The position numbers and the translations under genes were made by a program. The notes beneath the pieces are model-generated. The model was not told the origin of the DNA. It did not search any database and saw only the letters and a list, made by a program, of their open reading frames with translations. From a bacterium (GTDB taxonomy: Bacteria > UBA8248): a stretch of 64,000 bases of DNA. Positions 4,303 to 62,412 of the stretch are shown here, one piece after another. The stretch's first letter is position 1; the number at the start of each line of letters is the position of its first letter. Where the stretch lies: NCBI GenBank assembly GCA_965199855.1, contig OZ241326.1, positions 1,280,001 to 1,344,000 of the forward strand. The letters are read 5' to 3'.

Positions 4303-4377
4303 GGGCCCATAGCTCAGCGGCAGAGCCGCCGGCTCATAACCGGCTGGTCCTTGGTTCGAATCCAGGTGGGCCCACCA
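4303..4377 (+). tRNA. tRNA with CAT anticodon, most likely tRNA-Ile2 (lysidine-modified)
   Basis: Cloverleaf GGGCCCA...TGGGCCC-A-CCA; anticodon arm GCCGG-CTCATAA-CCGGC; TTCGAA T-loop; C4:G69 and C5:G68 pairs; no initiator features. Confidence 0.9.
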
Positions 4378-5871: not shown

Positions 5872-6242
<371 letters not shown>

Positions 6243-36715: not shown

Positions 36716-36792
36716 GGGGCTGTAGCGAAGCCGGTTATCGCGCTGGCCTGTCAAGCCAGAGATCGCGGGTTCGAGTCCCGTCAGCCCCGCCA
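36716..36792 (+). tRNA. tRNA-Asp(GTC)
   Basis: GGGGCTG/CAGCCCC acceptor stem, G discriminator plus CCA, anticodon arm CTGGC-CTGTCAA-GCCAG, GGTTCGAGTCC. Confidence 0.95.
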
Positions 36793-57927: not shown

Positions 57928-58329
57928 ATGGCGCAAGACGGGATGAAATACGGCGCGAGGATGATAGCGGAGGCCAGGCTCGAGACCGCGCCGAACCCCT
58001 CGAAGGGGCGCGACTACGTCGTCGAGTTCGAGATTCCCGAGTTCACCTGCCTCTGCCCGATCAGCAATTTTCCCGACTTCGCGACCATTCGCGTCAAATA
58101 CGTCCCGGCGGAGAAGATCGTGGAGTTGAAATCTCTCAAACTCTACATCAATAATTACCGGGATCGGGAAATTTTCCACGAGCAGGCGGTGACCGAGATT
58201 CTGGGCGACCTGGTGGCGGCCTGCGCGCCCAGGTGGGCGTGGGTGGAGGGCGACTTCAACGTGCGCGGAAACATCAAGACCCGCGTTCGCGCCGCCCACG
58301 GCGAGCGGCCGCCGGGGGCGCCCGAGTAG
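57928..58329 (+). CDS. queF: preQ0 reductase (type I QueF)
   Basis: EFTCLCP...PDFA, VELKSLKLY, FHE, F.VRG.I. Confidence 0.94.
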   Translation: MAQDGMKYGARMIAEARLETAPNPSKGRDYVVEFEIPEFTCLCPISNFPDFATIRVKYVPAEKIVELKSLKLYINNYRDREIFHEQAVTEILGDLVAACAPRWAWVEGDFNVRGNIKTRVRAAHGERPPGAPE

Positions 58330-58431
58330 GGGCGCGGCCGGAGGGCGGGCGAACCGGAGGGGCTCCCGCGCGAATGCGGGGAAAATGGGAAAAGCGAGAA
58401 TCTTTCAGCCGCATATCTCCATGAGGTGAAC

Positions 58432-60681
58432 ATGACGGACTACAAGGTGGCGGGCCTGGGCCACGCCCGAATCGACGCGCCGGACAAGGCGGCCGGAAGC
58501 GCGCAATACGCGGCGGACGTGCCCTCGGGCCGCGCGCTGACGGGCCTCGTTCTGGGAAGCCCGCACGCTTACGCGAAGGTCAAGAGCGTGGACGCCGCCG
58601 AGGCGCGGCGGGTCCCCGGCGTCCGCGCCGTTCTCACGCGCGAGGAGGCGCCCCGCATCCGCTTCGGGGCGAACATCAAGGATCAGAGCTGGTTCGCCCA
58701 GGACGGCTTCGTCCGCTACGGCGGGGAGCCGGTGGCCGCCGCCGCCGCCGAGGACGTGGACGCCGCCCAGGCGGCGCTCGAGCTGATTCGCGTGGAATAC
58801 GAGCCGCTCGAGCCCGTGGTGGACGGCCTTGCGAGCCGCGCCGGGGAGGGCCTCGCCGTCCACGAGGACTGGCGAAAGCTGAACCTCGGCCCGGGCGGGA
58901 AGAAGAACGTCATCGCCCGCTTCGAGAAGGAAATCGGGGACGCGGACGCGGGCTTCCGCGAGGCGGATCGCGTCTTCGAGCACGCCTTCTCCACCCCGTT
59001 CGTCCACGCCGGCTACATCGAGCCGCACGCCTGCGCGGCCGAGGCGGGCGCGGACGGGAAGGTCACCATCTGGACGACCACCCAGGACGCCTGGGCGATC
59101 CGCGCGGACGTGGCCGAGGCGCTCGGGGTTCCGGCGACGCGGGTGCGCGTCGTCCCCACGGAGATCGGCGGCGGCTTCGGCGCGAAGCTCAAGAGCGTCT
59201 ATGAGCACATCGCCGCGCTTCTGGCGCTCAGGACGGGCCGCCCCGTGCGCATGGAGATGAGCCGCGAGGCGGACCACGCCGGCGTGAACCCCAGGCATCC
59301 GCACTTCATCACCATCCGCACGGGCGTGAAGAACGACGGGACGCTCACCGCGCGCGAGCTCGACGTCACGATGGATCACGGCGCCTACGGGCGGGGGGCG
59401 CCGTTTCAGTGCAGCAGCAAGATGCTCATGGGCTCCTCCTCCTACCGCATTCCCAACGTGCGGATTCGCGCCTGCACCGTCTACACCAACGGGCCCGTCT
59501 GCGGCCCGGTGCGCGCCCCGAGCGGCCCCCAGTATCACTTCGCCACCGAGGTGCAGATGGACATCATCGCGCGCGAGATGGGCATCGATCCCCTGGAGAT
59601 CAGGCGAATCAACGCGCTGCGCCCCGGGGACGAGACGCTCGCCGGCGCGGAGGCGAACCCCTCCATGCGCGGCGTGCTCGACTCGACGGCGGCCGAGAGC
59701 CGGTGGGGCGGACGCCCCGAGGCGAACGGCGCGCTCGAGGGCGAGGGCTGGAAGCTCGGGCGCGGCATCGCCTGCGGCTACTGGCCGGGGCCGGGCGAGG
59801 CGTCCAGCTGCTCCGCCCGCCTGAACCAGGACGGCACCGTCCACGTGATCGCGGGGACGGTGAACCTCACCGGCATGAGCACCTCCATCTGCCAGCTGGC
59901 GGCGGAGGAGCTGGGCGTGAGCCTCGACGCGGTGCGCTACGTGAGCGGCGACACGGATTCCGTACCCGAATCCTCGGCGGCGTCGGGCAGCAAGGCGACG
60001 CGCGCGGTGGGCATGGCGGCGCTCGCCGCGGCGCGCGACCTGCGCGAGAAGATTCTGAGCGTGGCGGGCGTTGCGCTCGAGGCGTCGGCGGACGATCTGG
60101 TTCTCGAGGACGGGCGGGTGAAGGTCGCCTCGGCGCCGGATCGCTCCCTCACCCTCGCGGAGGCGGCGCAGGCGGCGCCCGCGATTCAGGGGTTCCTCAT
60201 CGGGCAGGGCGAGAGCGCGAAGCCGCCCCCGTGTCCGATACACACCGCGCAGGTGGCGGACGTGGCCGTCCACCCCGAGCTCGGCGAAATCCGGGTGCTG
60301 CGCCTCACGTGCGTGCAGGACGTGGGCTTCGCCATCAACCCGCTCTCCGTGGTCGGGCAGATCGAAGGCGCGATGCTCCAGGGGCTGGGCCTCGCCCTCA
60401 TGGAGGAGCAGCCCCGCCGCCCGGACGGAAACCTCCACGGCGAGACCCTGCACGAATACCTCCTCCCCACGAGCATGGACGTGCCGGAGCTCCGCGCCGT
60501 CCTCTACGACAACCCGGCCGAGGACACGCCCTACGGGATGCGGGGGGTGGGGGAGCCGCCCATCGTGGCGACGGCCGCCGCCATCGTGAACGCGATTCAG
60601 GACGCCGTGGGAGCCCCCGTGTTCTCCCTGCCCGTCGGCCCCCACCACATACGCGAGGCGCTGGCGGGGAGCGGCGCGTGA
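58432..60681 (+). CDS. Xanthine dehydrogenase-family molybdopterin-binding subunit
   Basis: K..G.A.Y..D, SPHA.A, VRY.GEPVA, GGGFG.K, RAP, AINP....GQIEG, GVGEPP. Confidence 0.92.
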   Translation: MTDYKVAGLGHARIDAPDKAAGSAQYAADVPSGRALTGLVLGSPHAYAKVKSVDAAEARRVPGVRAVLTREEAPRIRFGANIKDQSWFAQDGFVRYGGEPVAAAAAEDVDAAQAALELIRVEYEPLEPVVDGLASRAGEGLAVHEDWRKLNLGPGGKKNVIARFEKEIGDADAGFREADRVFEHAFSTPFVHAGYIEPHACAAEAGADGKVTIWTTTQDAWAIRADVAEALGVPATRVRVVPTEIGGGFGAKLKSVYEHIAALLALRTGRPVRMEMSREADHAGVNPRHPHFITIRTGVKNDGTLTARELDVTMDHGAYGRGAPFQCSSKMLMGSSSYRIPNVRIRACTVYTNGPVCGPVRAPSGPQYHFATEVQMDIIAREMGIDPLEIRRINALRPGDETLAGAEANPSMRGVLDSTAAESRWGGRPEANGALEGEGWKLGRGIACGYWPGPGEASSCSARLNQDGTVHVIAGTVNLTGMSTSICQLAAEELGVSLDAVRYVSGDTDSVPESSAASGSKATRAVGMAALAAARDLREKILSVAGVALEASADDLVLEDGRVKVASAPDRSLTLAEAAQAAPAIQGFLIGQGESAKPPPCPIHTAQVADVAVHPELGEIRVLRLTCVQDVGFAINPLSVVGQIEGAMLQGLGLALMEEQPRRPDGNLHGETLHEYLLPTSMDVPELRAVLYDNPAEDTPYGMRGVGEPPIVATAAAIVNAIQDAVGAPVFSLPVGPHHIREALAGSGA

Positions 60682-60716
60682 AGCCCGTCCGAACCTTCCT
60701 GTGAGGAGAGAATCCC

Positions 60717-61382
60717 ATGCCCGTGGACGAAGCGACGAGCCTGCCCGACAGCCTGGGCGTGACCGACGAGATGATGGCGTGTCCGCTGCCGCGCCTGCCC
60801 TTCGTCGCGCCCGAAGCCGTGCCCGATGAACTGAAGGAGGAGCTCGACCCCCTCTATGCGTGGGCGAAGCGGATGTGGGGCACCGTCCCGCGCTTCCTCC
60901 AGCTGCTGGGAAATTCGCCCCCCACCGTGGAGGGGTGGATGCTGCTCGACCAGAAGCTGCGCACGAACCGTCTGAAGACGGAGCCGGACTACATCCGCCT
61001 CATGGAGCTCGTCATCGTCAAGACGGCCATCCTCACGGAGTGCAACAACTGAATCGGGCACAACGTGGAGCTCGGTCGGGCTCTGGGCCTCAGCCAGGAG
61101 CAGATCAACCTGCTCGAGGGCGACGGCTGGCGGGACAGCGAGGCGTTCGACGAGAAGGAGAAGGCCGTCGTCCGGTGGGCGGACGAGGTCTCGAAGCTCA
61201 CGGCGAAGAACAACGACTTCGCCTTCGCCGAGATGAAGAAGCACTTCACCGATCGCCAGATCGTGGAGCTCACCTTCATCTGCGGCATGTGGCACCTCTC
61301 GGGCAGGCTCGCCGAGGCGCTTCACCTGGTGGTGGAGCCTCCGGGCGGGCGCATCGAATTTCAGAAAGAGGACATGGCGTAG
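60717..61382 (+). CDS. AhpD/carboxymuconolactone decarboxylase-family protein, probable selenoprotein (CNNU, Sec at codon 112)
   Basis: ORFs 60717-61052 and 61065-61382 are in the same frame separated by one TGA (61050-61052) at the second position of the CxxC motif; ELVI..TA...C..U..H, F...EKA...WAD, HFTD.QIVELT. Confidence 0.8.
61067..61084 (+). promoter_or_regulatory. Candidate bacterial SECIS hairpin
   Basis: (G)GAGCTC-GGTC-GGGCTC(T); G-first apical loop starting 22 nt after the UGA. Confidence 0.6.
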
Positions 61383-61514: not shown

Positions 61515-61597
61515 GATGGAAAAACAAAGGCTTAAGAGGTTTTTTTGATGAAAAAGGATGAAAAAAGCGTTGCATTTTCCGAAAAATCGGCTATACT
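61515..61597 (+). promoter_or_regulatory. Strong sigma-70-like promoter with A-tract UP element
   Basis: GATGAAAAA twice at 10-bp spacing, then TTGCAT(61570)-16 bp-TATACT(61592). Confidence 0.65.
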
Positions 61598-61863: not shown

Positions 61864-61908
61864 AAAAAGACGACGCCCGGCCGCTTCCATCGGCCGGGCG
61901 TCTTTTTT
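61864..61908. terminator. Intrinsic (bidirectional) terminator
   Basis: GACGCCCGGCCG-7 nt loop-CGGCCGGGCGTC followed by T6 and preceded by A5. Confidence 0.85.
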
Positions 61909-62336: not shown

Positions 62337-62412
62337 TGGTGGAGGTGAGGGGACTCGAACCCCTGACCTCGTGGGTGCGATCCACGCGCTCTCCCAGCTG
62401 AGCTACACCCCC
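62337..62412 (-). tRNA. tRNA-Ala(CGC)
   Basis: GGGGGTG/CACCTCC acceptor with G3:U70, anticodon arm CGTGG-ATCGCAC-CCACG, GGTTCGAGTCC, ACCA end. Confidence 0.95.

Follow-up and report, generated by a model that had tools for sequence, protein, structure and literature searches.

AhpD of Mycobacterium tuberculosis carries a C-x-x-C redox pair at the start of a helix, and the second Cys of this pair is the nucleophile. Selenocysteine (Sec, or U) is inserted in Escherichia coli with the help of a Sec insertion sequence (SECIS) of the fdhF type, a SelB-bound hairpin that forms within the coding sequence a short distance 3' of the UGA and displays G-U in a small apical loop. The two themes meet in the AhpD-type selenoproteins, known since 2005, when the “AhpD-like protein” (COG2128, CxxU, 27 sequences) and the “CMD domain-containing protein” (CxxU) were listed among the Sargasso Sea selenoprotein families (Zhang, Fomenko, and Gladyshev 2005; PMC1088965). 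The subsequent analysis of the Global Ocean Sampling data listed “AhpD-like 1” (COG2128, 299 genes) and “AhpD-like 2” (pfam02627, 70 genes) (Zhang and Gladyshev 2008; PMC2398784), and the available part of a 2026 review includes four AhpD-type selenoprotein entries (PMC13188914). According to BSepDB, as far as the accessible portion of its description goes, metagenome-assembled genomes (MAGs) titled Nitrospinota or Nitrospinaceae (UBA8248 in GTDB) have 48 to 54 selenoprotein genes and rank in the bacterial top ten in this respect (PMC13326102). The gene described here comes from a bacterium of GTDB lineage UBA8248 and was found in a stretch of 64,000 nucleotides (positions 1,280,001 to 1,344,000 of contig OZ241326.1, assembly GCA_965199855.1), hereafter the window. 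It occupies positions 60717-61382 of the window on the plus strand and very likely encodes an AhpD/CMD-like selenoprotein in which UGA codon 112 is read as Sec, a conclusion drawn from comparative sequence analysis. Relatives of the window's genome carry titles similar to those of the BSepDB MAGs and presumably belong to the same lineage. A literature search found nothing on the CNNU motif together with selenocysteine and, for selenoproteins of UBA8248, only BSepDB.

The region 60717-61382 is a single frame of 221 codons plus a TAG stop (61380-61382), which starts with ATG at 60717 and contains just one internal in-frame stop, TGA at 61050-61052, in the context ELVIVKTAILTE-C-N-N-TGA-I-G-H-N. 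A plain list of open reading frames (ORFs) breaks it into two pieces, 60717-61052 (111 amino acids) and 61065-61382 (105 amino acids, GTG start). The initial annotation of this DNA, made from the sequence alone, had described two ORFs sharing one frame and separated by a lone TGA, a layout that was reproduced in every detail, and had interpreted them as a 221-residue selenoprotein split by gene callers; the comparisons below likewise reveal a single conserved gene. In the numbering of the 221-residue read-through product, the motif reads AILTE-C109-N-N-U112-I-G-H115-N116. The redox motif C109-N110-N111-U112 (TGC AAC AAC TGA) spans 61041-61052 and the subfamily-invariant H115-N116 codons (CAC AAC; CAC in 40 of 40 aligned sequences) span 61059-61064, both on the plus strand. 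The start at ATG 60717 can be considered fixed because the N terminus is conserved from M1 in all subfamily members; a Shine-Dalgarno-like GAGGAGA, read directly from the sequence, lies 7 nucleotides 5' of it (60703-60709, plus strand). Inspection of the sequence 5' of GTG 61065 found no Shine-Dalgarno motif, so the second ORF indeed has no convincing ribosome-binding site. The 111- and 105-residue pieces are present as separate predicted proteins in public collections (sources NCBI, ENA, and Logan), and the read-through sequence with C was not found in the same collections by a look-up that would miss records bearing U. The chief value of the present analysis would thus be an annotation correction, replacing the two public fragments with one predicted 221-residue selenoenzyme.

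With the read-through product as query, 17 proteins were found in a public protein collection at E ≤ 1e-5. An alignment of 14 of them with the query shows an invariant Cys in the column of U112, the sole invariant Cys of the alignment, and the full-length Cys homologs continue without a gap across the junction of the two ORFs. In seven of the nine close Cys forms (P0002-P0010, 48 to 58% identity), C109 is replaced by Ser or Gly, and the other two have C-x-x-C, which argues that residue 112 is the indispensable one. The subfamily profile also matches solved AhpD-like proteins, including Atu0492 (2gmy; E = 2e-16), PA0269, 2oyo, D. radiodurans AhpD (6k40), and the debrominase Bmp8, the U column being aligned with the second of the two Cys residues in their C-x-x-C. 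As anticipated in the initial annotation, this column holds Cys or TGA in homologs and never Trp.

The TGA itself is retained in all 20 orthologous loci of the same genus. Six-frame searches of the 22 other genomes of the genus found a match with exactly one TGA in every one of them; in 21, the match covers residues 1-220 or 1-221 at 84 to 90% identity, and in G018, only a 63%-identity paralog is among the matches listed. The ortholog in G015 (C38:36699-38748) appears to be broken or rearranged, as residues 1-157, including the TGA, are followed by two separate copies of residues 156-221, one of them in a TAA-containing frame. In a search of 51 genomes of the phylum, 44 had a match at E ≤ 1e-40, and each of the 81 rows listed contained exactly one TGA. 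Among 18 loci from named MAGs, TGA is found in 17, with titles that include Nitrospinota/Nitrospinaceae, Tectomicrobia, Acidimicrobiia, Alphaproteobacteria/Rhodospirillales, Sulfotelmatobacter, Chthoniobacterales, or plain “bacterium”; the exception, L092 (titled Anaerolineales), has TGC. Contigs from three other studies span the whole gene with three to five differences, none of which falls at 61050-61052, so that the TGC or TGG in other reads that would have spoken against the selenoprotein was not encountered; a contig from a fourth study covers the TGA without any difference. Given this retention across relatives and independent contigs, a sequencing error, a pseudogene, and a strain-specific nonsense mutation can all be excluded. 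Sponge metagenomes are among the public data sets that contain the stretch.

The TGA is followed by a hairpin with the core GAGCUC-GGUC-GGGCUC (61068-61083), which a G.U pair lengthens to 7 bp (61067-61084, plus strand; 5' arm, 61067-61073; loop GGUC, 61074-61077; 3' arm, 61078-61084). The first G of the loop (61074) is the 22nd base past the UGA; the sequence and the distance are as claimed originally. A G in a small apical loop, in the wording of PMC1088965 a feature of the bacterial SECIS, is present in this hairpin. Codon usage in the hairpin is unusually constrained. In a set of 40 orthologs and close paralogs, which leaves out L064 because its motif does not match the pattern, codons 118-122 (E118-L-G-R-A122) have a mean entropy of 0.31 bit, whereas the mean over 81 other conserved codons is 1.16 bit. 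CTC encodes Leu119 in 40 of 40 sequences and GGT encodes Gly120 in 39 of 40, and the lone variable codon site of the hairpin, CGG/CGA, swaps a U.G pair for U-A.

Covariation was assessed in a hairpin alignment of 31 of the 42 distinct sequences (L064 was again excluded). Standard pairs occupy 93.1% of its 217 cells versus 82.0 ± 1.3 in shuffles, and 0 of 500 shuffles match the observed pairing or covariation score; as these sequences are related, the shuffle figures are not to be taken as probabilities. Sliding the partner by one to three columns lowers the pairing to 26 to 53%, five of the seven pairs are altered on both sides, and RNAalifold independently recovers the same helix. The S-D-Y-U form L090, which probably comes from the same 4425-base contig as L064, has a fully compensated hairpin, GGGCUC-GGGC-GAGCCC, in which A-U is changed to G-C. 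The Cys form L092, with its TGC, encodes D-L-A-R-A in other codons, and the stem cannot form. The hairpin is therefore conserved with compensatory changes, in line with the SECIS proposed at the outset. The Sec forms L084-L089 and L093, which are 59 to 71% identical to the query and come from MAGs titled Acidimicrobiia, Alphaproteobacteria/Rhodospirillales, Sulfotelmatobacter, and Chthoniobacterales, have nearly identical hairpin nucleotides, which suggests that the gene has spread horizontally along with its putative SECIS.

The genome of the window (3.04 Mb in one contig, 67% G+C) encodes the complete Sec pathway. The initial annotation had proposed looking for selA, selB, selD, and tRNA-Sec, and a genome search detected all four above their curated cutoffs, at 548, 372, 344, and 79 bits, respectively, with selB directly beside selA. 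The selD gene (C1:2985603-2986568, minus strand) has a single in-frame TGA of its own, in the context ARAGG-U-GSKLGPEDL, followed by a hairpin of another design, so SelD of this organism can also be considered a selenoprotein. Elsewhere, TGA is an ordinary stop: it terminates the gene immediately upstream (60679-60681) as well as 1685 of the 2564 open frames that are 400 codons or longer and is the commonest stop in the genome. An alternative genetic code is accordingly not the explanation.

The same genome carries a whole series of such genes. A six-frame search gave nine matches, eight of them with exactly one in-frame TGA. In addition to the query, these are L024-L029 and L031 (C1:1780042-1780701, 2070754-2071350, 3005628-3006302, 688978-689637, 1626918-1627598, 2744640-2745281, and 208149-208808), whose motifs comprise CNNU, CEIU, three instances of CAYU, CKYU, and CNYU; the sole Cys paralog, L030 (C1:1464779-1465288), has CHFC. 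Related genomes have 8 to 13 matches each, nearly all with a single TGA. In all eight TGA-bearing genes of the window's genome, the hairpin is found in one register with differing stems (GAGCUC/GGGCUC, AGCUU/AAGCU, GCGCUU/AAGCG, CACGUUC/GGGCGUG, and GCCGGUU/AGUCGGC), and the loop is GGUC in seven; the most divergent one (C-N-Y-U) has GGC or GGCG. A genome-wide scan for the exact pattern (TGA, 21 nucleotides, GGTC, and at least five flanking pairs) produced ten matches, seven of which are these AhpD-like paralogs. The three other matches lack a convincing frame and appear to be due to chance. An 8:1 series of Sec and Cys paralogs in one register offers a compact natural set for studying the SelB requirements of this lineage and may help explain the preference for Sec over Cys at this site.

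Assignment to the AhpD/CMD family, part of the initial annotation, was borne out by the Pfam CMD domain (PF02627), which scores 26.0 bits over residues 95-157 (gathering cutoff, 23), and by the predicted AhpD fold. The AlphaFold (AF2) model, built from nine input sequences, is all-helical, with a predicted local distance difference test score (pLDDT) of 87.8 and a predicted template modeling score of 0.85. In this model, helix 110-122 follows directly on C109 and has U112 in its first turn, so that C109-N-N-U112 sits where the family has its C-x-x-C, at the helix N terminus. Every Foldseek match listed at E ≤ 0.001 (20 of 35) is an AhpD/CMD protein, with template modeling scores to the target of 0.67 to 0.84; the matched folds include neither the tail nor the N-terminal ∼30 residues, whose pLDDT is about 75. 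Together with the frame and the homologs, this fold supports annotation of the whole of 60717-61382 as one coding sequence.

In a maximum-likelihood tree of 30 rows, which leaves out P0011-P0014 because of their partial or odd N termini, the query falls into a clade with support of 95/96, which also contains the Cys forms P0002-P0010 and the Sec forms of other phyla and is sister to the C-E-I-U paralog. Sec and Cys forms are interleaved within the clade at an unresolved fork, and for this reason no direction of Sec/Cys change is drawn. Clade-wide features are a conserved N-terminal stretch of ∼35 residues (M20, R26, P32), the invariant H115-N116, and a VEPPGxRIxF tail. The closest curated models are NF053654 (GroundWater_YciW), which gives 46.4 bits against a cutoff of 310 and covers only profile positions 63-170, and TIGR01926 (peroxidase-related enzyme), with 32 bits against 81.8; the query thus belongs to neither. 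It has no match at E ≤ 0.01 to NF041238 (AhpD_rel_CFYUT), which is weakly matched by three other paralogs only, or to NF041047 (distant AhpD homolog). None of the other eight paralogs passes a whole-protein (equivalog or subfamily) NCBIfam cutoff; the sole model passed, by two of them, is TIGR00778, which describes a short domain. The proposal that the CNNU spacer and the N-terminal extension might define a distinct subfamily hence stands in part: the clade, its conserved N terminus and tail, and the absence of any NCBIfam model whose cutoff is reached speak for it, but the C-N-N spacer is not diagnostic, as it varies to C-S-N-U and S-D-Y-U in Sec forms and to S-I-N-C, S-N-N-C, and C-N-N-C in Cys forms.

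Several observations weigh against the selenoprotein assignment or parts of it. A single-sequence fold of the 61 nucleotides after the UGA is not unusual compared to shuffles (z = -0.6), and Rfam gave nothing at the gathering threshold and no hit even at E ≤ 10 over 60950-61200. The stem has a single mismatch in L050, L065, and L067 (A.C) and in L085-L087 (G.G), and it barely varies within the close subfamily, so that the covariation comes mostly from the paralogs. Because the hairpin overlaps the conserved peptide E-L-G-R-A, its conservation is partly that of the protein sequence. On the protein side, the query fails the curated cutoffs of all NCBIfam AhpD-type models, and its His is at U+3 instead of the canonical +4. 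One rival reading is that the hairpin is a mere by-product of the peptide E-L-G-R-A and that the true SECIS, if any, lies elsewhere; conservation of the peptide and the weak z-score of the fold count in its favor. A by-product would not be expected, however, to freeze 4- and 6-fold degenerate codons as seen for Leu119 and Gly120, nor to maintain the pairing through double changes in paralogs that encode KLGQA, ALGQA, TFGRA, or PVGQS, and the D-L-A-R-A of the Cys form uses other codons and does not pair. A hairpin of purely coding origin is accordingly very improbable.

Of even lower probability is that the TGA is a true stop, so that the locus would consist of two separate small genes or a pseudogene, with the downstream frame starting from GTG 61065 or decaying. 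Gene callers yield exactly the 111- and 105-residue products, which are both in public collections, and TGA is the most frequent stop of this genome; yet the TGA and both halves are under purifying selection, in 81 of 81 rows from the 51 genomes and in other phyla. Full-length Cys homologs crossing the junction gap-free, the lack of a Shine-Dalgarno sequence before GTG 61065, which lies right beside the hairpin, and the single AhpD domain that the two halves build in the predicted model point in the same direction. A near-cognate or suppressor tRNA that inserts a standard amino acid at the UGA (Trp, Cys, or Arg) would also give one continuous protein, without Sec. Nothing specific speaks for this reading, which is highly unlikely in view of the complete Sec pathway, the placement of the UGA in the catalytic Cys column, the hairpin with its small G-first loop, which stands at the distance of a SECIS and is missing from the Cys form, and the seven further paralogs of identical design.

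If, as favored here, codon 112 is selenocysteine, the established bacterial pathway suggests that SelB carrying Sec-tRNA(Sec) would bind the hairpin at 61067-61084 with its apical GGUC loop, and that the bound hairpin would recode the UGA 14 nucleotides upstream of the stem. By analogy with the AhpD-type CxxC, U112 would be the attacking nucleophile, with C109 resolving the intermediate into a selenenylsulfide, and the protein could be a selenol/thiol oxidoreductase that reduces peroxides or disulfides. Selenium incorporation, the attacking residue, and the substrate are what we infer from this scheme, and hydroperoxide or disulfide reduction, again by analogy, has about an even chance of being the actual function. 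The query and seven of the eight Sec paralogs have His at U+3, whereas the spacing from the second Cys is +4 in the Cys paralog of this genome and in the relatives of solved structure; catalysis may thus differ in its details from that of AhpD.

The gene directly upstream (58426-60681, plus strand) codes for a 751-residue molybdopterin-binding large subunit of the xanthine dehydrogenase/aldehyde oxidase family (Pfam domains Ald_Xan_dh_C, MoCoBD_1, and MoCoBD_2), and its TGA stop is 35 nucleotides upstream of the selenoprotein ATG. This molybdenum (Mo) subunit is below all NCBIfam equivalog cutoffs, the best model being the alpha subunit of 4-hydroxybenzoyl-CoA reductase (451 bits versus 995). 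It adjoins the selenoprotein gene in all 20 same-genus loci and in G023, in five of six loci from other genera of the family, and in 9 of 18 named-MAG loci, and the adjacency is kept across the family genera even though the identity of the Mo subunit drops to 61%. It was not found around paralog 2 or in the Acidimicrobiia, Alphaproteobacteria, and Sulfotelmatobacter loci, and a comparison of coordinates within the window's genome showed that no other paralog adjoins a MoCoBD gene. In a sister family, the direct neighbor is a MetE-like gene, and a 33%-identical Mo subunit is encoded 1.7 to 3.5 kb away on the opposite strand in two of four loci. The genome has ten MoCoBD genes and four Fer2_2 genes, and only two of the ten adjoin a Fer2_2 gene; the Mo subunit at 58426-60681 is one of the eight that have no adjacent gene for a 2Fe-2S subunit, and it has no adjacent gene for a flavin adenine dinucleotide-binding subunit either. 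A 975-residue open frame in G043 suggested a fusion of the Mo subunit with the AhpD-like protein, which was rejected, as the two genes are in different frames.

Such an arrangement raises the possibility that the selenoprotein is a dedicated partner of the upstream Mo-hydroxylase large subunit and not a general antioxidant, serving as a selenol/thiol redox relay or as a helper that would deliver or repair a labile S or Se ligand of the Mo cofactor. The selenoprotein, on the other hand, is present without a Mo neighbor in Acidimicrobiia, Alphaproteobacteria, and Acidobacteria loci, and a dedicated partnership is considered unlikely. Since the genomes compared are relatives and not independent of one another, the linkage should be taken as a lead rather than as evidence of function. 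Even so, pairing with an orphan Mo-hydroxylase subunit offers the AhpD-like selenoprotein family a testable substrate lead.

Directly before the Mo subunit gene, the window encodes a QueF-II type preQ1 synthase (57928-58329, plus strand; 143 bits against a cutoff of 86.9), which is kept there in 7 of 18 named-MAG loci and two of six loci from other genera. Downstream, an A/T-rich patch, unusual for a genome with 67% G+C, is located at approximately 61518-61580, and a perfect 12-bp palindromic hairpin (11 G-C pairs) with T-runs on both strands, resembling a bidirectional terminator, lies at 61872-61902, about 490 nucleotides past the gene. The window also contains the class A RNase P RNA (299 bits; 5877-6241) and three tRNA genes (4303-4374, 36716-36789, and 62340-62412, the latter on the minus strand).

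Compared to the systems introduced above, the hairpin resembles the fdhF SECIS in being located within the coding sequence soon after the UGA and in its small apical loop with G-U. The distance from the UGA to its loop exceeds that in fdhF by one codon, and the hairpin has no Rfam match. The protein shares its general outline with M. tuberculosis AhpD but differs in having Sec for Cys and His at +3 rather than +4 and in the absence of ahpC or any other peroxiredoxin gene among its neighbors; with neither the C-x-x-C-x-x-x-H spacing nor the ahpC neighbor, it is not a true AhpD. The solved AhpD-like proteins (2gmy; PA0269, represented by 2ijc, 2o4d, and 7xw1; 6k40; 2oyo; 2prr; and Bmp8, 6ohi) have the AhpD fold in common with the query and match its profile with E values of 2e-16 to 1e-7, their catalytic Cys being aligned with U112. 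However, all of them are Cys proteins with 13 to 28% identity, and they leave the first ∼30 and last ∼15 residues of the query uncovered. The best-scoring curated models, NF053654 (“YciW-related (seleno)protein”) and TIGR01926, represent the same superfamily and motif region, with the query below both cutoffs.

The closest likeness is to the published CxxU AhpD-like selenoproteins: to the extent that the available parts of those reports describe them, these also have Sec at the second position of the motif, an AhpD/CMD domain, widespread Cys homologs, and, just past the UGA, a SECIS whose small apical loop contains a G. The present locus combines a UGA at the conserved catalytic Cys, Cys homologs, a downstream candidate SECIS, and the Sec machinery in the genome, and it differs from those proteins, as far as they are described there, by the extra ∼35 N-terminal residues, the VEPPGxRIxF tail, and the His at U+3 of its subclade. 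It can be regarded as a genuine selenoprotein gene of this already known type, to which it adds some mildly new details, namely, a subclade not modeled in NCBIfam, an 8:1 set of Sec and Cys paralogs with a common SECIS design, and a family-level pairing with a Mo subunit.

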